Under the pieces are notes generated by a model that worked only from the letters and a program-made list of their open reading frames with translations, was not told the DNA's origin and did not search any database. A stretch of 63,737 bases of DNA, the filler included, from Stramenopiles sp. TOSAG23-2 (lineage: Eukaryota): assembly GCA_900128395.1 (NCBI GenBank). It is 19 parts of 19 records of this genome, joined end to end, with 100 filler letters (N's around TTAATTAATTAA, not from the genome) between each part and the next. Parts side by side here need not be neighbours in the genome. Positions count along the whole stretch, not along the records: positions 60,489 to 63,737 come from LT651299.1; 18 more parts are not named here. The stretch is one strand, 5' to 3'. Shown piece after piece: positions 11,923 through 63,737 of this stretch; within the stretch, counting starts at the first letter, position 1, and every line of letters starts with the position of its first letter. A program made the position numbers and the translations under genes.

Positions 11923-13203
11923 TTATTTAAATTCCAATGCATCATATAAGATTTTACCATCACTTGGCATGGTAGTTACACCACCAGTTTTACCATCTGG
12001 ATAAATATTAAACCATGCTTCTTCCAATGTTTTTTTATCTTCATCTTTCGTGATGTCCAATTCTCTCCATGTCCAATATTCAGCATCTGGGTTGTTTTCA
12101 ATCATATGTTTGCTACCTTCTTTGGAACGTATTAAATATGCACCACGTAAAAAGATATTACCTTTACCACCACTTTCTTCCGTACCTGGATTCGATAAGA
12201 TTTGTACCGTACCAAATGCATATTTTCTTAATGGATCACAACGTTGAATAAAACCAGTAACTAAATTACTTGTTTGCCATAAGATCGTATTGTCATCATC
12301 GTAATTATATTTACATGCATATACGGTCCAACCAGCATTGTCATACATGTCGTAAAATTGTTGCATCACACTTGCTTTGTCTTTGGTATTGGAATATATT
12401 TTTTTCCATACATCTAATACCAAAGGTGATTTTGGTAAATCTCTCATGATTTCTTTTAAACCTTTTGGTTTTTCTTTTTTTTTTGGTGCTTCTTTTTTTG
12501 GTGCAGCTGCTTTCTTTTCTTTTTTCTTTTTGCCACCACTGCTTTTTCCACCTTTCGCAACAAGTGCTTTGTTGCACATGGTAAATACATTACCAACAAC
12601 AGCTTGAAATTCTGGTTGTGCCGCACAGGTTTGTATCCAACGACTTACGTTACCATATGGTTTACGATATTTTTTATCCATAACAAATTTAAATGGATAA
12701 TATAAAGCAGAAAATAAACAAATATCAGCAAGGGTTACACGTTCACCAACGAAATAAGTATTTAATGATAAATGATTATCCATTGCTTTTAATGATTCGC
12801 CTAAATGTTTTTTTGCTTCATTTGTTGCTTCGCCATTTGCTTCCATGTATCCTAAAATTGGATATACCCACATCGTTGCTGGTACTTCGACTTCGTTGCT
12901 ACAGAAATCCATCCATGAATCAACTTGTCCACTTTCAAAGAAAGAGTTACCATATAAACCATTGTCACCACGTAATCTTGCAATGTAACGTGCGATCGCA
13001 TTGGATTGGCTGATGCATCCATCTTTTGTTTTCAATACAGGTACTTTACCCATTGGTGACATTTGTAAGAATTCATCTGTAGTATTGTCTTTTCCCATGG
13101 TAAATGCTGGTACATCTATTGTTAAACCACTGTATTCAGCTGCAATTAATGCTTTAAATGCACGAAAATTAGTTGGAAAGGTATATAATGTTAATGCGGA
13201 CAT
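11923..13203 (-). CDS. EEF1G: Translation elongation factor 1B gamma
   Basis: GST-like N-domain (RAFKALIAAEY, PMGKVPVL, SNAIARYIA), Lys-rich linker, C-domain (LDVWKKIYSN, NLVTGFIQRCDPLRKYAFG). Confidence 0.96.
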   Translation of the reverse strand: MSALTLYTFPTNFRAFKALIAAEYSGLTIDVPAFTMGKDNTTDEFLQMSPMGKVPVLKTKDGCISQSNAIARYIARLRGDNGLYGNSFFESGQVDSWMDFCSNEVEVPATMWVYPILGYMEANGEATNEAKKHLGESLKAMDNHLSLNTYFVGERVTLADICLFSALYYPFKFVMDKKYRKPYGNVSRWIQTCAAQPEFQAVVGNVFTMCNKALVAKGGKSSGGKKKKEKKAAAPKKEAPKKKEKPKGLKEIMRDLPKSPLVLDVWKKIYSNTKDKASVMQQFYDMYDNAGWTVYACKYNYDDDNTILWQTSNLVTGFIQRCDPLRKYAFGTVQILSNPGTEESGGKGNIFLRGAYLIRSKEGSKHMIENNPDAEYWTWRELDITKDEDKKTLEEAWFNIYPDGKTGGVTTMPSDGKILYDALEFK

Positions 13204-25010: not shown

Positions 25011-26843
25011 TCACCTTCCAATATCAACACTTGCAGTATCACTACTAGTTTCACTATATTTCGTATTAATCGTTTCAAATATATCAAATATATCGCCATT
25101 TATAAAATCATGATCGACTACGTTTACTAAATAATACGTTTTGTGTATTTCATGTATCAACTCTGATGATCTCGATTCTTCATTGTATAAAGTTGCCCAT
25201 TCCGACAACCATAAACTAAATGCTTCATCTTTCCAAACTTCAAAAATTTCAGGATCTACAACTGTTGGTTGCAACGCTTCTCGGCCAGGGAATATACCCC
25301 ATGTGACAGCTGATGCTGATTTGGAATCACTATTTGAATATGAATTGCCATTAATATCAATCGCATGATATGTCAAGGAGCAATTTGCCAATTCACTAAT
25401 GGATTCCATAAATTGTCCTAATTTTTTCGGAGAACAAAAAAATTCAATGTATGCCTTTTGATATATTCTACCGTTTGGTCCACCCCATCCAAACACACTA
25501 TCATCGGAAGATATTCCATTCACCGCTGGTTGACTGTTAATGGTTAAAAATCCATTTCTATTTAATTTCCCTAAACGTTCAATAATTTCTAATGTTTCTA
25601 ATTGCAATGGTTCAGTACACCATGGTAAACGTCCAACTTTACCTTCTACATATTGTGCGAACACTTCATTAATATCACTTGCTTCCAATGGTGCCTCGTT
25701 CCATTGTGCTTTTCTTTCTACTACGGTCCCAGAGTTGAAACGGAAAAAATGCGTTTCACCTAATTCACCGAATGCTGGGCTATTTTTATTTCCCCATCGT
25801 CCATTTGGAAATTCATCCCACGCTTCAGTACGTGCCATGTAACTTTTTGGACGATTGGCCCAAAAAATTGGACGTACATTTTCATCATGACGATTCGAAA
25901 GTGTTGATGCTCTCCATGGGAAACGACGACGACTGGCAGCTCTTGGTCCTACTTTAATTTGCGATGCTTTATCAGAGCCTTTTAATGTTTCATCCCCGAT
26001 AGATAAACTTGGTCCATAGTTATCATCATTGCCATATGTAGCTGATATAGTCGGTGAGTTAATCAGATCTTTTTGTGGTTCATCCACTTTATTGATTGAA
26101 TCTGTTGTATTTTTGACTTCCTCGTTCGTAGTATTATCATTTGTAACATCTTCTTCTTCACCTTCTTCCTCCTTACTATAACCAGCAAGACCTACACGTT
26201 TAATAATTTCACGTACGGATCTTTCAAGGTTTAACGTATAAAAATGCAATCCAGGTGCACCCTGTTCTAAACATTCATTACATAATTTAGTAACAATATC
26301 AATACCAATCTCACGTACAGCTTCATCATCATCTTTTTGTTCCTTCAATTTTTCCAACAAGACATTTGGAATTTGACATTTACAATACTCCGTCATAGCT
26401 TTAAATGCTCTGAAATTTTGTATTGGCATGATTCCAGGTATAATTGGCACGTTGATACCAGCAGCCTGGCAATCTTTTAAATATCGCCCATATGCTTCTC
26501 CACGATAAAACAATTGTGTCAATACAACATCCGCACCTGCATCAACTTTTTCCTTTAAAAATTTAACATCACTTTCATATTTTTCCATACCATCATATCC
26601 TTCTGGATATCCAGAAACAGCAATACAAAAGTAATCACCAAATTCTTGACGAATAAATTGAACAAGTTCTTTTGCATTTAGTAATCCATTTTCGCATTGT
26701 TTCCATTTCCCACCTTGCCCACGCACTGGATCACCGCGCAAAGCTAATATATTTTCAATTCCAGCATCTTTTGCTTGTTGTAATACTTCACGTAATTTAT
26801 CTTTTGTCATATTTGTACAAGTTAAATGCATATTTGGAACTAC
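25011..26843 (-). CDS. MTHFR: Methylenetetrahydrofolate reductase (eukaryotic, with regulatory domain), 5' partial
   Basis: MHLTCTN, NILALRGDP, LKEKVDAGAD..TQLFY, HFYTLNLE, RPIFWANRPKSY, WDEFPNGRWG, TINSQPAVNG, VTWGIFPG. Confidence 0.97.
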   Translation of the reverse strand, partial: VVPNMHLTCTNMTKDKLREVLQQAKDAGIENILALRGDPVRGQGGKWKQCENGLLNAKELVQFIRQEFGDYFCIAVSGYPEGYDGMEKYESDVKFLKEKVDAGADVVLTQLFYRGEAYGRYLKDCQAAGINVPIIPGIMPIQNFRAFKAMTEYCKCQIPNVLLEKLKEQKDDDEAVREIGIDIVTKLCNECLEQGAPGLHFYTLNLERSVREIIKRVGLAGYSKEEEGEEEDVTNDNTTNEEVKNTTDSINKVDEPQKDLINSPTISATYGNDDNYGPSLSIGDETLKGSDKASQIKVGPRAASRRRFPWRASTLSNRHDENVRPIFWANRPKSYMARTEAWDEFPNGRWGNKNSPAFGELGETHFFRFNSGTVVERKAQWNEAPLEASDINEVFAQYVEGKVGRLPWCTEPLQLETLEIIERLGKLNRNGFLTINSQPAVNGISSDDSVFGWGGPNGRIYQKAYIEFFCSPKKLGQFMESISELANCSLTYHAIDINGNSYSNSDSKSASAVTWGIFPGREALQPTVVDPEIFEVWKDEAFSLWLSEWATLYNEESRSSELIHEIHKTYYLVNVVDHDFINGDIFDIFETINTKYSETSSDTASVDIGR

Positions 26844-26943
26844 NNNNNNNNNNNNNNNNNNNNNNNNNNNNNNNNNNNNNNNNNNNNTTAATTAATTAAN
26901 NNNNNNNNNNNNNNNNNNNNNNNNNNNNNNNNNNNNNNNNNNN

Positions 26944-29900
26944 GTTTTGTCTACAAAGTTTATTAAACAAAATAAACCTCGTATATTTAATTTATATACA
27001 TCATCGTTAAAAATAACATACAATGCACCTGATAGTACTACTATTAAAGGTACTATAGAGTTGAAAAACATCCGACATATTTATTTTGATACAGATAATA
27101 GATATGATAATATGGCCAGTTTAGGGAAAAGTGATCGTGCAAAAAAACGTTTGACAATTACTATTGATATATCATCTCGTAAATATAAATTGACTCCGGA
27201 TACAGAAAATGATATGAGATCATGGCTACGAACATTATTGAAAATAAATATGTTGCATAATAAAATTACTGAAAGAAAAGTATCCATGAGAGGATCTTTA
27301 AAATCAACATCTGGTTTAGAGTTAGAAAAATCCTTTGGCATACCACATTTATATGATAGAATATTATTATTAAATCGCAATGAAAAGCAAGGTGGTGATG
27401 CAGAGGATGAAAAAGAGAAACAAGAAAATGTCACAAACTTATTTGTACATATACATGATGTGACACATGATGATATGCCATTAAAATTTGATGTATCTGG
27501 TGATACAAGTATAAATAAAATGATACAAAATATCATTGATGAAATAAAACCAAAGGATAATGATGATGATGATGATGATAAGAAGAAGAAGGAAGGAGGA
27601 GGAGGAGGAAACACGAAACGCATTGATGAGTCATCCTCGTTTAATATTTCAAAGGAAGATTATGAAAATGTACGTTCTGAAGTGTTTCAAATTAAATTAT
27701 TACTAAAAGGAAAAAGGTATGATGATGACTTATCATCTGCTTGGAAAAGTGATGAATGGTTCGAAACAAGTGAATTCCATATACCAAAAATACGGCATTT
27801 GCAAATGTCTTTCCAAAGAAAAATTACACCATTAGCAAAATTAGTTTTACAAAAAAGAATTGGTGCAAAAGCTGTGGAAGCAGGTGGTATTTTTGTTGAA
27901 CTTGTCCCGTTGTATTTAGTTCCACAACTGCAAATTGACATTAAAATAAATTGTGTCCAATTACTACGAGATGATTCAACCAATAAACAGTTTGCGATGT
28001 ATAAGATCAATGTTCAAAATGGCGGATTGCGTTGGATTGTTTCCCATCGATTTAGCGAGTTTCACACATTTTATACAAATTTAGTTGAATTGTGGTCACA
28101 GCGTGCTGGATCCGTGTCACCAAGTATGAACAAGTCAAATGCGATGAAACCATTGCCATCTATACCATCTAAAACATTTTCCAAGACGCTTGATATACCA
28201 TTTCTTGATCTGCGCAGGAAAGAATTAGAAAAGTTTATCAAAGAATTATTAAAACATGAATGGGCATCGCAGCGTCCGGAAGTGTTATCGTTTTTAGGTT
28301 TTATGTCTGATCATTCGGATACTGGAATATTATCGAAACCAAAATCTATTCATATTAGTAAAATACAGGAAGTGGTCAATACTGGTGATATTGTATTGTT
28401 TAAATCCAAAAATTCATTAAGTGGGTTGCAACGCATTGCAACGGGTACAAATTGGGATCATATTGGGATCATATTGCAACGAACTGAAGCACTGTATGAT
28501 ATCATCGAAGCTACCGGAGATGGTGTCCAAATGTATCCATTAATAAATCGTTTAGAAGTGTACAATCAAACATTAATGTTTGATTGTACACTTCTAAACG
28601 ATTTATTAATGGATACATTTGGACACCATCTCCGGTAGCTTCGATGATATCATACAGTGCTTCAGTTCGTTGCAATATGATCCCAATATGATCCCAATTT
28701 GTACCCGTTGCAATGCGTTGCAACCCACTTAATGAATTTTTGGATTTAAACAATACAATATCACCAGTATTGACCACTTCCTGTATTTTACTAATATGAA
28801 TAGATTTTGGTTTCGATAATATTCCAGTATCCGAATGATCAGACATAAAACCTAAAAACGATAACACTTCCGGACGCTGCGATGCCCATTCATGTTTTAA
28901 TAATTCTTTGATAAACTTTTCTAATTCTTTCCTGCGCAGATCAAGAAATGGTATATCAAGCGTCTTGGAAAATGTTTTAGATGGTATAGATGGCAATGGT
29001 TTCATCGCATTTGACTTGTTCATACTTGGTGACACGGATCCAGCACGCTGTGACCACAATTCAACTAAATTTGTATAAAATGTGTGAAACTCGCTAAATC
29101 GATGGGAAACAATCCAACGCAATCCGCCATTTTGAACATTGATCTTATACATCGCAAACTGTTTATTGGTTGAATCATCTCGTAGTAATTGGACACAATT
29201 TATTTTAATGTCAATTTGCAGTTGTGGAACTAAATACAACGGGACAAGTTCAACAAAAATACCACCTGCTTCCACAGCTTTTGCACCAATTCTTTTTTGT
29301 AAAACTAATTTTGCTAATGGTGTAATTTTTCTTTGGAAAGACATTTGCAAATGCCGTATTTTTGGTATATGGAATTCACTTGTTTCGAACCATTCATCAC
29401 TTTTCCAAGCAGATGATAAGTCATCATCATACCTTTTTCCTTTTAGTAATAATTTAATTTGAAACACTTCAGAACGTACATTTTCATAATCTTCCTTTGA
29501 AATATTAAACGAGGATGACTCATCAATGCGTTTCGTGTTTCCTCCTCCTCCTCCTTCCTTCTTCTTCTTATCATCATCATCATCATCATTATCCTTTGGT
29601 TTTATTTCATCAATGATATTTTGTATCATTTTATTTATACTTGTATCACCAGATACATCAAATTTTAATGGCATATCATCATGTGTCACATCATGTATAT
29701 GTACAAATAAGTTTGTGACATTTTCTTGTTTCTCTTTTTCATCCTCTGCATCACCACCTTGCTTTTCATTGCGATTTAATAATAATATTCTATCATATAA
29801 ATGTGGTATGCCAAAGGATTTTTCTAACTCTAAACCAGATGTTGATTTTAAAGATCCTCTCATGGATACTTTTCTTTCAGTAATTTTATTATGCAACATA

Positions 29901-30205
29901 TTTATTTTCAATAATGTTCGTAGCCATGATCTCATATCATTTTCTGTATCCGGAGTCAATTTATATTTACGAGATGATATATCAATAGTAATTGTCAAAC
30001 GTTTTTTTGCACGATCACTTTTCCCTAAACTGGCCATATTATCATATCTATTATCTGTATCAAAATAAATATGTCGGATGTTTTTCAACTCTATAGTACC
30101 TTTAATAGTAGTACTATCAGGTGCATTGTATGTTATTTTTAACGATGATGTATATAAATTAAATATACGAGGTTTATTTTGTTTAATAAACTTTGTAGAC
30201 AAAAC
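26944..30205. repeat. Whole-contig perfect inverted duplication (palindrome, axis 28574/28575)
   Basis: Contig ends are reverse complements (GTTTTGTCTAC...GTAGACAAAAC); identical 563-aa ORF on both strands; centre CAAACATT|AATGTTTG has no loop. Confidence 0.97.
26947..28574 (+). CDS. PH + PX + permuted papain-like (YiiX/YebB, NlpC/P60) domain protein; partial at both ends, mirrored on the minus strand from 30202 to 28575
   Basis: PH (KGTIEL...RKYKL...MRSWLRTL); PX (HRFSEFHTFY...PSIPSK...RRKELEKFIKELL); TGDIVLF..WDHIGII..IIEATGDGV; sequence after the axis is artefactual. Confidence 0.8.
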
Positions 30206-30305
30206 NNNNNNNNNNNNNNNNNNNNNNNNNNNNNNNNNNNNNNNNNNNNTTAATTAATTAANNNNNNNNNNNNNNNNNNNNNNNNNNNNNNNNNNNNNNN
30301 NNNNN

Positions 30306-31018
30306 GAAGATGCGTATGCATATGACTTGATTCAAAATAAACTAAAAACATTAATAAAAGGCAATAATAATAATCATGATAACAATACACTACCTCCGAG
30401 GGATAGACAAATGTTATATATTGATATTAATAATATTATTAATCAACTTGATATTGTTGATGATAAGGAATACTTGCAACTTATTTCATCGTTATTTAAT
30501 GACAAGCATGTAACTGTAATTGGAAATGATTTAGAAAAAAAAGATCGTGGTTTACGATTTGCAGCATTGAATTTGTTTTTATTTTGTCTACAAAATCAAT
30601 TACCATATTGTAATAACAACGAAGATAACGAAGAAGAAAATGATACTGATAACACAATTTACGAACCTTATATCTTAAATTTGAAACTATTTTTAAAACG
30701 ATTAAATACTAGTAGAACTTACAATTTTTACATCATACAAAAAGGTAAATATTATAACAACATTGTAGATAAATGGAAAAAATCTGGTCCATATACAACT
30801 TTAAGTGCATATATACGAAATAATTATTGCACCAATGAATTTTTGCCACCATTAGAGACATTAAAATCCTTAACGAAAACAAATCATGATGCATATATAT
30901 GGTCGATTCCGAATAATTTAAATGATAATGTTGTAAAGAATAATAATAAAACTATAATACTGAAAGACCCAAATAAAGCATTCATTGGGGTAATTATTAG
31001 TAATCAAGCAGAGGAAGA

Positions 31019-59998: not shown

Positions 59999-60726
59999 GA
60001 TATAAATATATATACACGTGCTAATACAATTTGATGATAAAAAAGGGGGGGGGATACTTTATATTATATTTTCTAAAATGTTTCCACTGTTGTTTCTTCC
60101 ATCTCTATATCCCTCTGATCCTATATATATGCTTATTAATGCATCTATATCCTATTGGAAAAGTTAATGGAGGATAATATGGCCAGATTATAGCATATAC
60201 ATATAGTCATGTGTACTGAAAATATTATATTGCTGATATTTTTACAAAAGCAAAATGAATTCCATGCAACAACTACAACATGCATTCTTCTGCATTGTGG
60301 AATGGAATTAGATCTAAAATGTAAATATATAGTTCATTGGTTTAAAAATTACGAATAGCACAAGAAGATTATATAGTCTATGTTGAGTNNNNNNNNNNNN
60401 NNNNNNNNNNNNNNNNNNNNNNNNNNNNNNNNTTAATTAATTAANNNNNNNNNNNNNNNNNNNNNNNNNNNNNNNNNNNNNNNNNNNNTTATAAGAAAGA
60501 TTTATTATAAACTACAAATTCCAGGATTCATCATCCTTAATAAACCCCACCACAGACCATCCATTTTGTTATAAATAAAAATACCACCACCTATACCACC
60601 AGGTAATAATATTACCAGGTAAAAAAATATTAATAGATATAAATATATTAATATTATGATAATAGATATATAGATACTATATAAGAAAGAAGAAACACAA
60701 CAAACCAAATACAAGCATAAAACATC

Positions 60727-62127
60727 ATGGCATCGTTAGCAAACAATAATAATGATAAATCATATTCATTAGAGACATTCATTGAAGTGCATTCTGGTCA
60801 ATTGGAGGCACAAAATATACCAAAAAAATTATGGTCTAAAATATATCAAAAGCTTTTTAATAATCAATTTGATGCCGGTATTTGTTTTACCTTTTCATTT
60901 GATCCTGATCTTGAACCGCATAAACGCTATGAGGTGTTGGCAAAAGAAGCATTAAAGAAGGAAGACGATATTTGGCTAATTGAGCATATATGGCTTTTTA
61001 AAAGTGCCGTTGATGCTGTCATGGTATTGAAGAATTATCCTCAAGTCATGGATAGAATGTTGTTGTTGACTGGATATGATAAAGATACTTTGTTATCTAC
61101 TTCAATAACTTCGTCGGATGATAATAATACTAGTGATGATAATAATAATGAAAAAGATGAAGACGTATCAGCCCGAATGGCTGATCGAATGATAGATGAG
61201 TTGCAACGCTATGCATATCCACTGATTGATTCTGAAGGAAACCGTATGCATTATGTGATGGATGAATTGGGAAGTAGAGTAAAATTTGCAATCAATGATG
61301 ATGATAAACCAAATGTAAAATATGCAACTATATTCAATCAATTGACAAATGAAACTGTGACATTAATGTGGTGTATTGAGAATGTTAAAGATGGCGACGT
61401 TGTTATGAGGTCTCCGCAACATAGAATGTCAATAGTTGGGTTAAAAAAAAGAGCATGGGAAGTACGTTTTGAATATGAAAAGCAATATGATTGGTACTGT
61501 GAGTACAATGAAGGGTCCCCTTTGAGAAATTTAATATTGAAAACTGCTCTTGATAAAACTGAACCTGTATTAATTGTTGGTAGTGGCAGCAGCACCATGC
61601 CTATGAAAATGAGTGATGATGGATTTACAAATTTAACTGCTTCAGATTATGTAAAAGCTATAGTTGATCGAATGAGAGAAAAATTTGATAAGGAGGAATA
61701 TTTAAATAAAATAAAGTGGATGGAACTAGACGCAACAAAAATATCATCAAAAATATCAGAAAATACTATTAAGTATATTGTTGACAAAGGTTGCCTTGAT
61801 GCTTTACTGGTACGAGATGGTGTAGATGGTAGTCATGAAGGGAAAGATTCATGGGTATCAGAGGAACCGGATGACGTGAAAACAATGTTATCGGAGATAT
61901 CAAAAACTCTTACAGATAAAGGACTTTATTTATTAACTAGTTTTGGGTCACCACATTATTTATGTAATACATTAAGTTTTGAAAGTTCTGGATTGGAATT
62001 ATTAAATTGTTATCAAATTGAAAGGACGAAAGAGCAAGCAGAAAAAGATTCACGTATACCTGGTTTAAATCCTGGCTCTGAGTTTTACTTTTTAGTTTTC
62101 CAAAAGATGACTAGAGTGACAATGTAG
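60727..62127 (+). CDS. Fusion of TTLL12-like N-terminal (SET-like) domain and EEF1AKMT4/METTL13-N-like methyltransferase
   Basis: N-half F..VH..QL...IP..LW..I..KL....FDAG, IWLIEHIW, YVMDELGSRV, TLMW.....GD.V.R; C-half W..RF....YDWY, VLIVGSGSS, IVDKGCLDALL, MLSEI...L...GLYL..SFGSPH. Confidence 0.85.
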   Translation: MASLANNNNDKSYSLETFIEVHSGQLEAQNIPKKLWSKIYQKLFNNQFDAGICFTFSFDPDLEPHKRYEVLAKEALKKEDDIWLIEHIWLFKSAVDAVMVLKNYPQVMDRMLLLTGYDKDTLLSTSITSSDDNNTSDDNNNEKDEDVSARMADRMIDELQRYAYPLIDSEGNRMHYVMDELGSRVKFAINDDDKPNVKYATIFNQLTNETVTLMWCIENVKDGDVVMRSPQHRMSIVGLKKRAWEVRFEYEKQYDWYCEYNEGSPLRNLILKTALDKTEPVLIVGSGSSTMPMKMSDDGFTNLTASDYVKAIVDRMREKFDKEEYLNKIKWMELDATKISSKISENTIKYIVDKGCLDALLVRDGVDGSHEGKDSWVSEEPDDVKTMLSEISKTLTDKGLYLLTSFGSPHYLCNTLSFESSGLELLNCYQIERTKEQAEKDSRIPGLNPGSEFYFLVFQKMTRVTM

Positions 62128-62340
62128 CATAATAATTTTTTTCAGAGAGAAGAACCCAAGGGCGTTTTATTTTTTTTGTGGGAAGAACGAGAGATATTCG
62201 TACATACATTATACGTAAAAGTCATATATTATATAATCAATTTATACGAAGTTTTTAGTATTTTGTTGTGTTATACGAATCATACTTCGTATTATATTTC
62301 AATCATATTTTTATAGATATTTTTATTTAAAAAAAAAGTA

Positions 62341-63153
62341 CTACCTTAGTTGGTTTTGTCTTCGTTTTTGAAATTCTGTTATATAATTCATAAAGTCTTC
62401 AATGTATCCAAAAAATGTATCATGTGTTCCACTTCGCTTCTTTAATGTTAATTCAATATTGTTATGCCCAGCACCTTTTATCCATAATGGTGGATATCTA
62501 TACTTTTCTTTTATAGCTAAATATAATTGTTCTCCGTGATAAAAAGGAACAATTTCATCTAAACGTCCATGCATTATAAAAATAGGACAAGTTATTTCAC
62601 CAATTTTATCAATATTACACATTAAATCGCCTGGGAAACTATATGCAAAATGAAACGCAACGCGATACGCAGACATCAATGGGCTTTGTAAAATTACGCC
62701 GGCAACGGGCCTTCCTTTTCTACTTTGCCGCATTGCTAGTTCGCAAGATGCCCCGCTGCCTAATGAACGTCCATATAGAATTATTTCTTCCTCTTTGTAT
62801 CCTTGAACACCAGTTAAATATTCAAATACACAAGTAATATCTTTAAAGCAATCTTGTTCTGTTGGATTCCTACTTTTATTAGTCATACCATATCCTGTGT
62901 AATCATATAAAAGTATATTTACGCCTAATTTTATAGCTACATCTTTAAACCATGAATATATTTGCCGCAGATCTTCTGCATTACCATGGCTAAATAACAC
63001 TGTATATTTTGCACCTTCAGCCAAAACTAAGGAAGCGTTTATAGTATGGCCACGATTTTTTGATGTTTTCGTTTGTATAGGTATAAAATTAGCATTTTTT
63101 TCCCATGGTCTTTGAGGTGGTTGAAACAACATAGATGTTGCAACGGCACCCAT
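62341..63153 (-). CDS. ABHD17: Alpha/beta hydrolase ABHD17-like depalmitoylase
   Basis: FQPP, LFSHGNAEDL, YDYTGYG, LYGRSLGSG, HGRLDEIVP, GAGHNNIE. Confidence 0.9.
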   Translation of the reverse strand: MGAVATSMLFQPPQRPWEKNANFIPIQTKTSKNRGHTINASLVLAEGAKYTVLFSHGNAEDLRQIYSWFKDVAIKLGVNILLYDYTGYGMTNKSRNPTEQDCFKDITCVFEYLTGVQGYKEEEIILYGRSLGSGASCELAMRQSRKGRPVAGVILQSPLMSAYRVAFHFAYSFPGDLMCNIDKIGEITCPIFIMHGRLDEIVPFYHGEQLYLAIKEKYRYPPLWIKGAGHNNIELTLKKRSGTHDTFFGYIEDFMNYITEFQKRRQNQLR

Positions 63154-63737
63154 CTTTGTACAGTTGTTGCGGTGGTGTGAATGAAAAATTGTTGTATTAA
63201 ATGTATCGGTATGCTTGCATATGATTCTAGTTTGATTTATGGAAACTTATTTCAGAATAAACATGTCTTATTATTTCGATCAATACCAGGTATATTCAAT
63301 TGTTGAATATATATTAATATTATTATTCACATGTTGTTAATAAATAAATAATAATAGAAGTACTAAAGTACTATACCTAGGTATTTTTTATTATTACTAT
63401 TTAAGGATATTATATTTATTAAAATATTTATTACTATAAGAAGTAATAAAATTTAAGCTGTGCACCTGAAAAGTCTAGCCGCCATTAAAAAAGGCTGCCG
63501 ACAGCTGGACAGCACGAACGAATTAGAATGTGCTATCCATCTGGCTATCACACAACAACAACAACAACAAAATTATTTTCGAAAAAAAAAAATTCTTCTT
63601 ATTTTTTTTTTCTTCTTTTTTTTAAATTTAAATTTAAAATATACATAAATTGAATTATAAATGATTAACAACATAATTCAAAATAATAATGAGATATATA
63701 AATGTTCTTCATCAATAATAGATCAAGATGATTATGC

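Follow-up and report, generated by a model that had tools for sequence, protein, structure and literature searches.

We examined a window of 63,737 nucleotides (filler included) from the marine protist Stramenopiles sp. TOSAG23-2 (GenBank assembly GCA_900128395.1), in which 19 parts of 19 records are joined end to end; "window" means this whole stretch, and all positions count along it. The part at 60,489 to 63,737 (from LT651299.1) carries at 60727..62127, on the plus strand, one uninterrupted open reading frame (ORF) with an ATG start, encoding 466 amino acids and a stop codon with no internal stop, exactly where a preliminary description of this DNA had placed it. That description had read the gene as a fusion of the SET-like N-terminal region of TTLL12 to a seven-beta-strand (7BS) lysine methyltransferase, in place of TTLL12's tubulin-tyrosine-ligase-like domain (TTL). 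All of the motifs on which it relied are present: FDAG (residues 48-51), WLIEHIW (83-89), YVMDELGSR (176-184), TLMW (212-215) and GDVVMR (223-228) in the N-half, and YDWY (254-257), motif I VLIVGSGSS (281-289) and DKGCLDAL (353-360) in the C-half. The junction that it put in frame at about 61420-61455 corresponds to residues 232-243. The features assigned to the gene are as follows (AdoMet, S-adenosylmethionine; AF2, AlphaFold2).

60727..62127, plus strand: whole gene, a single-exon ORF colinear with its homologues from first Met to last strand
60760..61422, plus strand: TTLL12-type SET-like domain (residues 12-232), assigned from Pfam SET_TTL, the AF2 model and SET-fold matches
61111..61164, plus strand: low-complexity Asp/Asn/Ser insert in the SET-like domain (residues 129-146), of varying length among relatives and lying in gappy alignment columns
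61411..61455, plus strand: fusion-specific linker SPQHRMSIVGLKKRA (residues 229-243)
61443..61450, plus strand: run of eight A (A8) at the domain junction, in the codons Leu-Lys-Lys-Arg, read from the sequence
61456..61497, plus strand: N-terminal extension of the 7BS domain (W244...YDWY257), aligning with 2pxx from residue 10
61498..62112, plus strand: 7BS methyltransferase core (residues 258-462), with 2pxx as best PDB match by sequence and fold
61567..61593, plus strand: motif I VLIVGSGSS, putative AdoMet-binding glycine loop (residues 281-289), aligned to the LGCGNS loop of 2pxx
61645..61647, plus strand: Post I acidic residue D307, invariant, at the VDY position of 2pxx in the alignment
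61783..61800, plus strand: Post II motif DKGCLD (residues 353-358), hallmark of the eEF1A-KMT4 family

Judged by its sequence, the C-half is a complete 7BS methyltransferase of the family that comprises eEF1A-KMT4, eEF1A-KMT2, METTL12 and METTL13-N, and the earlier assignment to an EEF1AKMT4/METTL13-N-like enzyme is borne out. Its best match by both sequence and fold is 2pxx: by phmmer against PDB sequences (2pxx_A, E 1.8e-10, residues 244-413), by the family profile against PDB (E 6e-23), and by Foldseek with the full-length AF2 model (E 1.6e-10, template modelling (TM) score on target 0.71). That model has a predicted local distance difference test score (pLDDT) of 73.5 and a predicted TM score (pTM) of 0.53. 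PDB 2PXX is eEF1A-KMT4 (PMC5737405), and it was the only member of the eEF1A-KMT4 family to turn up in the PDB searches.

Conservation was assessed in an alignment of 10 members with 29-77% identity to the window protein. Invariant in it are W244, E245, R247, Y254, D255, W256 and Y257 of the N-terminal extension, G285, G287 and S289 of motif I, D307 at Post I, and D353, K354, G355, C356 and D358 of Post II. The eEF1A-KMT4 family (KMT4, KMT2, METTL12 and METTL13) is defined by the Post II consensus [D/E]-K-G-T-X-D, whose charged residues are essential for activity (PMC5737405; Jakobsson 2017); DKGCLD departs from this consensus only in having C for T. In eEF1A-KMT4 itself D88 contacts the AdoMet ribose, and Post II together with the N-terminal extension builds a tunnel to the AdoMet sulfur (PMC5737405); from its motif, D307 would be the equivalent of D88. 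Since all the motifs needed for AdoMet binding and lysine methylation are kept, we take the 7BS half as the catalytic part of the protein, and it is probably an active lysine methyltransferase.

The N-half is of TTLL12 type, as had been claimed. Pfam SET_TTL (PF25556), whose gathering score is 25.6, matches residues 153-229 with 32.5 bits (E 9.1e-08) and also matches eight of the ten aligned family members; the conserved residues are shared with the NCBI-named TTLL12 of Sycon. No match to Pfam TTL (PF03133) was found in the 466-residue protein at E<=1, residues 244-462 being the 7BS methyltransferase instead, and none to Pfam SET (PF00856). A profile search of PDB gave no solved relative of the N-domain by sequence. 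The PDB matches of the full-length model were swamped by methyltransferases, so the N-domain was folded and searched alone. The AF2 model of residues 1-238 (from a 35-sequence alignment) has pLDDT 90.1 and pTM 0.84. By VIA, 24 chains match it at Z>=8 and the top nine are all SET-domain proteins, led by Set7 of S. pombe (5h6z_A, Z 11.3, root-mean-square deviation 2.6 A over 117 aligned residues) and followed by a SET protein of Plasmodium (Z 10.2) and by human SET8 (Z 10.1). Foldseek gave 67 matches at E<=0.001, with SET8 (E 7.3e-05), MLL1 and SETD3 leading. Sequence identity to solved SET domains is 4-16%; on the evidence of the model, the fold of the N-half is truly that of a SET domain.

Positions conserved in at least 80% of the 35 sequences are H22, Q25, P32, L35, K42, D49, G51, H87, W89, F91, L101, R110, Y176, V177, D179, E180, G182 and W215, the first four lying on two N-terminal helices of the domain. 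These positions are common to all three architectures in which SET_TTL was seen (with TTL, with an eEF1A-KMT4-like domain, and with an NPPY-motif methyltransferase; see below). The end of the domain differs: in the fused family it reads G-D/E-x-x-x-R-S/A-P, and in the TTL-type members G-D-x-x-T-x-D-Y/F (e.g., GDEATVDY, GDYVTRDF), which we take to resemble the catalytic-tyrosine motif of SET domains. Canonical SET domains bind AdoMet and catalyze through motifs of the N-H-S/C and E-L-x-F/Y-D-Y types; the stretches of the window protein that correspond to these, when aligned by eye against the motifs, read YVMDELGS and GDVVMRSP.

The Asp/Asn/Ser insert is modeled poorly (pLDDT <50 at 126-142). 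Metagenome depth over it (61076-61203) rises to about 2,157, against about 19 elsewhere, with one spurious 134-nt "skip"; this peak reflects unrelated contigs attracted to the insert, and is not biology.

The junction and its setting

The best-conserved stretch of the protein lies across the domain boundary, from R228 to Y257 in the alignment, and within the linker the core family shows little or no variation at H232, R233, S235, G238 and K241. Unlike the insert in the SET-like domain, whose length varies freely, the linker is of nearly fixed length: 7-9 residues separate the two domain models in 13 of 13 full-length members, counted by hand from the coordinates of the hidden Markov models (HMMs).

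The stretch was present in 20 of 24 public sequencing runs among those listed, from 13 studies, and six of the 20 are RNA (metatranscriptomes). A metagenome scan found the junction in frame in six of six loci, ranging in GC content from 0.31 to 0.47; the A8 run is kept in four of these (L001-L004) and interrupted in two (L005 and L006). One DNA contig of 2,091 nt (run X6, a 2024 seawater metagenome) spans 60500-62299 with indels in the flanks only and none in the ORF, and a 568-nt polyA-RNA contig (run X15) spans 61256-61823, bridging the domain boundary. Coverage of the ORF by RNA contigs of X15, X17 and X18 is incomplete, with gaps such as 61908-62099; such contigs cannot show absence, transcript ends or expression level. 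Among the natural substitutions that the contigs reveal in the ORF, seven of eight are synonymous, and the eighth alters residue 461, near the C-terminus.

One relative speaks against a single reading frame. Its gene was called as two proteins, P0006 (265 aa) and P0184 (186 aa), on the same 32.9-kb contig. From the A8 run onward, the tail of P0006 matches what the window sequence encodes when the frame is shifted by one base, so this contig differs by one base in the homopolymer. The shift is probably a sequencing error, and may instead mark a genuine slippage-prone site or a real gene split.

That the fusion is an artefact, either a chimera made in amplification or assembly or a sequencing error that merged two neighboring genes, draws some encouragement from the position of the junction in the A8 homopolymer, from the frame-shifted relative, and from a probable amplification or assembly artefact elsewhere in the window (the 3.47-kb palindrome described below), but we find it scarcely credible and reject the chimera: the junction is in frame in all six independent metagenome loci and is spanned by the X6 DNA and X15 RNA contigs and by many homologues, the N-then-C order recurs in 22 of 150 listed representatives and in named reference genomes or transcriptomes of Saprolegnia, Plasmopara, Botryococcus, Dunaliella and Euglena, and nowhere is the protein better conserved than at the junction. 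These spanning sequences, and the TTLL12 match of the N-half, go against both findings that the preliminary description had named as refuting its reading. The gene, of an AT-rich marine protist, is real, expressed and selectively maintained, and in itself ordinary for its lineage.

The surroundings are AT-rich (GC 0.25-0.36) and gene-dense, with long unbroken ORFs for ordinary eukaryotic housekeeping proteins. The immediate neighbors encode a glyoxalase II and an alpha/beta hydrolase; more distant genes of the window encode an ABC half-transporter, CTP synthase, SRAP, sideroflexin, a PX-domain kinase, MTHFR, EF1-gamma, Rpc34 and methionine aminopeptidase. As expected in a eukaryote, no functional hint was seen in these neighboring genes, and no TTL domain was found in any of the 25 window ORFs of at least 250 aa. 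The elongation factor 1-gamma gene (GST_N, GST_C and EF1G domains; 11923-13203, minus strand) lies 47 kb along the window from the putative eEF1A methyltransferase gene, which is almost certainly a coincidence. A perfect palindrome of 3.47 kb occupies 26840-30309, about 32 kb from the fusion gene; its arms (26840-28574 and 28575-30309, 1,735 nt each) are 100% complementary with no spacer, and yield two identical 508-aa PX-domain ORFs on opposite strands. It is a probable inverted chimera of amplification or assembly rather than biology.

Distribution and related architectures

A word-index search with the whole protein gave 11 clusters of similar length, at 27-100% identity. When its N-half and C-half were used separately, such searches returned close relatives and fragments only, none of them named as TTLL12 or KMT4. 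Profile searching of 1.84 billion representatives, done exhaustively, yielded 5,527 matches at E<=0.001; among the 150 listed representatives (50% identity), HMMs of each half recognized 22 with this N-then-C domain order. The closest relatives of the window protein are marine sequences with 54-76% identity, and members of the nearest ESM Atlas cluster (0.98) are mostly Oomycota. Cluster look-up identified holders in Plasmopara halstedii (one record, labeled "Predicted spermine/spermidine synthase"), Saprolegnia parasitica and S. diclina ("hypothetical protein"), Dunaliella tertiolecta ("Methyltransferase type 11 domain-containing protein"), Botryococcus braunii, Euglena gracilis and a Picozoa single-cell assembly. 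Going by these holders, the fusion family is old and widespread.

The preliminary description knew of no earlier account of the architecture. This stands for the literature, in which we found no description of a SET_TTL-methyltransferase fusion, with the proviso that Aravind, Abhiman and Iyer (2011), on the SET clade of TTLL12 (cited by Brants 2012), may list such proteins; it does not stand for the sequence databases, where the fusion, no rarity of this genome, is already public under uninformative or wrong labels.

Trees were built for each domain. The C-domain tree (FastTree, 120 rows) leaves out domain matches that cover <=140 positions of the C-domain model. Of its 17 fused C-domains, 14 form a clade of their own with local support 94; the other three (P0048, P0057 and P0110) fall apart from it, with weak support (35). 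The single-domain neighbors of the fused proteins carry uninformative names in this tree, and the fused C-domains could belong with any of KMT4, KMT2, METTL12 and METTL13-N. The N-domain tree (36 rows, quick method) shows no single origin of the fusion: the KMT label needs seven changes, of which the starred branches force at least four. The long-branched P0157 groups there with the NPPY type. In both domain trees the green-algal and Euglena members group together, apart from the rest. On these phylogenies the fusion may have arisen once or twice.

Among the listed matches, the SET_TTL N-domain precedes three kinds of partner: TTL, an eEF1A-KMT4-like methyltransferase, and an NPPY-motif methyltransferase. 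The first kind comprises four proteins (P0121, P0147, P0166 and P0140) with TTL at 127-208 bits, P0121 being the NCBI-named TTLL12 of Sycon ciliatum. The NPPY kind comprises P0070 and P0098 (Pfam MTS, PrmA and DUF7059), and P0076, judged alike by eye; these are from environmental eukaryotes and match SET_TTL with 41.9-55 bits. No published description of the NPPY-type architecture was found, and the ESM Atlas clusters returned for P0098 were all bacterial and MTS-type, with scores of 0.80-0.81 that are too low to count. Because one surface is kept while the catalytic partner changes, the SET-like module would most simply be a binding module.

Two other arrangements were noted. P0052 and P0072 each have two tandem eEF1A-KMT4-like domains in one chain; there are 11 such "C-C" rows among those listed, and the arrangement looks undescribed. 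A viral cluster of the ESM Atlas (92 members, 331 aa, score 0.87) joins Methyltransf_11 to a canonical SET domain (PF00856); at that score it is no more than a lead to a further case in which nature pairs SET with 7BS methyltransferase domains.

Proposed mechanism and client

TTLL12 is conserved across eukaryotes, and for more than ten years its SET-like half has been associated with methylation, with no mechanism to account for the link; tests for tyrosinase, glutamylase, glycylase and histone-methylation activities detected none (PMC3520985; PMC10883266; PMC10889654). The fusion of a TTLL12-type domain to an intact-looking member of the eEF1A-methyltransferase family may serve as a Rosetta-stone clue to the front half of TTLL12. 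Two independent reports, in which human TTLL12 binds eEF1A1, point the same way. In the first, EEF1A1 is present in substantial amounts in human TTLL12 purified from mammalian cells and comes down with it in co-immunoprecipitation, but is not methylated by it; neither the whole protein nor its residues 50-250 methylated histones or EEF1A1 in vitro in the experiments described there, and a critical Asn is missing (PMC3520985; Brants 2012). In the second, TTLL12 fused to glutathione S-transferase (GST) binds eEF1A1 directly in a pull-down, through the C-terminal tail of eEF1A1 (aa 438-462) (PMC13616918, 2026). As to tubulin, TTLL12 does bind its dimer, and cells that lose TTLL12 have less arginine methylation of tubulin; in the presence of added tubulin, fluorometry hinted at some methyltransferase activity of TTLL12, and GST-TTLL12 aa 1-260 showed no tubulin binding (PMC10883266). 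The preliminary description had proposed tubulin or translation factors as substrates; taken together, these published data favor eEF1A over tubulin as client of the fusion, and they suggest that the SET-like half may be the eEF1A-binding part of TTLL12.

We lean, with moderate confidence, toward a two-domain methyltransferase in which the 7BS half is catalytic, the SET-like half docks, and the client is most likely eEF1A. The C-terminal 7BS domain would methylate a lysine of the client with AdoMet. The SET-like domain would be a non-catalytic docking or positioning module, catalysis by it being unlikely because its domain ending is altered and human TTLL12 has been published as inactive; going by sequence, this is the most likely role of that half. 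The short, fixed linker (about 15 residues) joins the SET-like domain onto the N-terminal extension, predicted to form one wall of the substrate-lysine tunnel. Because the fixed linker leads directly onto the tunnel-forming extension, the ligand of the SET-like domain would come to lie at the mouth of the active site: the domain would sit at the mouth of the substrate tunnel and present its bound partner to the catalytic center. The most likely such partner is translation elongation factor eEF1A: eEF1A-KMT4, eEF1A-KMT2 and METTL13 all methylate it, the last modifying two sites of it with two methyltransferase domains (PMC5737405; PMC6109062).

Docking of the two halves as separate chains gave an interaction prediction score from aligned errors (ipSAE) of 0.51, vs. 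a top value of 0.00 among three controls; at least 75% of contacts are shared between runs, with partner pLDDT no lower than 78. The pass mark used is reached by 51 of 78 solved complexes and by 2 of 108 mismatched pairs, and at ipSAE <=0.60 by 5 of the 78 solved complexes and by all four passing mismatches (of 180).

Several points weigh against this proposal. At that score the docking model lends the contact between the halves weak support, and the full-length AF2 model does not fix the placement of the domains (linker 232-253 with pLDDT <50, pTM 0.53). The tunnel is predicted by alignment, the extension that would form it having low pLDDT in the model. No Pfam methyltransferase model matched the window protein at E<=1 (Methyltransf_11 and Methyltransf_25 are each matched by six of the ten aligned family members). 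The apparent loss of the usual AdoMet-binding and catalytic SET motifs from the fused family, on which the docking role draws, is a reading by eye of the sequence alignment. As for the client, METTL12 is listed in the family without a stated eEF1A activity in the available portion of PMC5737405, so that family membership does not fix the substrate. The binding of eEF1A1 by TTLL12 is described for full-length constructs only in what is available of PMC13616918. The C-terminal tail of eEF1A1, moreover, might be the kind of ligand that a TTL-like domain holds, and the fusion has no TTL domain; if the TTL-like domain does hold the tail, the eEF1A link of TTLL12 is uninformative about the N-domain.

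Unlikely, although it survives best of the alternatives, is that the SET-like domain serves as an intramolecular regulatory or structural partner (as a lid, or for localization or stability) of an enzyme that acts on some protein other than eEF1A. METTL12, which has a substrate other than eEF1A, demonstrates that such substrates are possible in the family, and a short linker of fixed length, with docking of the halves weakly supported, would suit a partner of this kind, as would the occurrence of the same N-domain in front of a TTL-like ligase and an NPPY-type methyltransferase. It leaves unexplained why three different protein-modifying enzymes should share the module, and why TTLL12 is reported to bind eEF1A1.

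Somewhat less probable again is a dual methyltransferase with both halves catalytic, the SET-fold half modifying one site and the 7BS half another. METTL13, with two methyltransferase domains acting on one substrate, is a precedent (PMC6109062), the fold of the N-half is truly that of a SET domain, and all three architectures retain D49, G51, H87, W89, Y176, D179, E180, G182 and W215, as might be expected of an active site or ligand pocket; there is also the fluorometric hint of TTLL12 activity with tubulin (PMC10883266). These must be set against the inactivity of human TTLL12 and its residues 50-250 toward histones and EEF1A1 in the assays described, with the critical Asn lacking (PMC3520985). 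The fused family, furthermore, has R-S/A-P at the position of the SET "D-Y/F" dyad, by comparison with canonical SET motifs.

We give still less credence to tubulin as the substrate, with the enzyme working in the same mode and its TTLL12-derived domain bringing the methyltransferase to the alpha/beta-tubulin dimer. The only context of SET_TTL known earlier was a tubulin-tyrosine-ligase-like protein, and the tubulin binding and the effect of TTLL12 loss on tubulin arginine methylation (PMC10883266) would fit. The fusion protein has no TTL domain, however, and the available portion of PMC5737405 credits none of the eEF1A-KMT4 family with an action on tubulin.

Under the proposal of an eEF1A-directed methyltransferase with a docking domain, a question on TTLL12 that has stood open becomes testable: does the SET-like domain bind eEF1A, and does the fusion methylate eEF1A, and on which lysine? 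Only tentatively, and with less assurance, do we extend it to all three architectures: the SET-like domain could be an ancient docking module for eEF1A or, more broadly, a translation factor, attached in evolution to a TTL-like ligase, to eEF1A-KMT4-like methyltransferases and to NPPY-type methyltransferases. If this wider reading is true, the fusion would be a fifth class of eEF1A lysine methyltransferase, one carrying its own substrate-recognition domain, and eEF1A, in place of histones or tubulin, would be what the "orphan" TTLL12 serves. For annotation, the fusion family takes in proteins of oomycete and algal genomes that now go by "hypothetical" or "spermidine synthase", and an undescribed domain architecture is added to the 7BS lysine methyltransferases.

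Comparison with known systems

With TTLL12 (human, and Sycon P0121) the window protein shares a homologous N-terminal SET-like domain (Pfam SET_TTL), with conserved H22, Q25, P32, L35, D49, G51, H87, W89, Y176-G182 and W215 and a variable insert at the same place. Unlike TTLL12 it has no TTL/ATP-grasp domain; the spacer of about 100 residues that precedes TTL in TTLL12 is replaced by about 15 residues leading to the 7BS methyltransferase, and the SET-like domain ends in G-D/E-x-x-x-R-S/A-P where the TTL type has G-D-x-x-T-R-D-F/Y. Because the TTL domain was looked for and not found, the protein is, by its sequence features, not a TTLL12.

The likeness to the eEF1A-KMT4 family (EEF1AKMT4, 2PXX) extends through the N-terminal extension W..R[FY]...[YF][DE]W[YF], motif I, the Post I Asp and Post II, with Post II Thr replaced by Cys in the fusion. 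KMT4 is a single-domain protein (PMC5737405), whereas the fusion has a 240-residue SET-fold domain in front. METTL13 is also of two domains, joining an eEF1A-KMT4-like 7BS domain to a second domain of methyltransferase fold (PMC5737405; PMC6109062); there the KMT4-like domain is N-terminal and its partner is a spermidine-synthase-like 7BS domain (PMC5737405), whereas in the fusion it is C-terminal and its partner has a SET fold.

Canonical SET methyltransferases (Set7 5H6Z, SET8 1ZKK/5HQ2, MLL1, SETD3/SETD6) have the same fold as the modeled N-half, which differs from them in its identity of 4-16% and in having no Pfam SET match. The SET_TTL-NPPY fusions (P0070, P0076 and P0098) begin with the same N-terminal SET_TTL module and continue, likewise, with an AdoMet-dependent methyltransferase, but theirs is of another class and follows a spacer of about 200 residues, and their N-domains group in the tree with the TTL type (SH-aLRT 93) and not with the KMT4-like fusion. 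Taken on its sequence features, then, the window protein is an eEF1A-KMT4-family methyltransferase with a TTLL12-type SET-fold N-domain.

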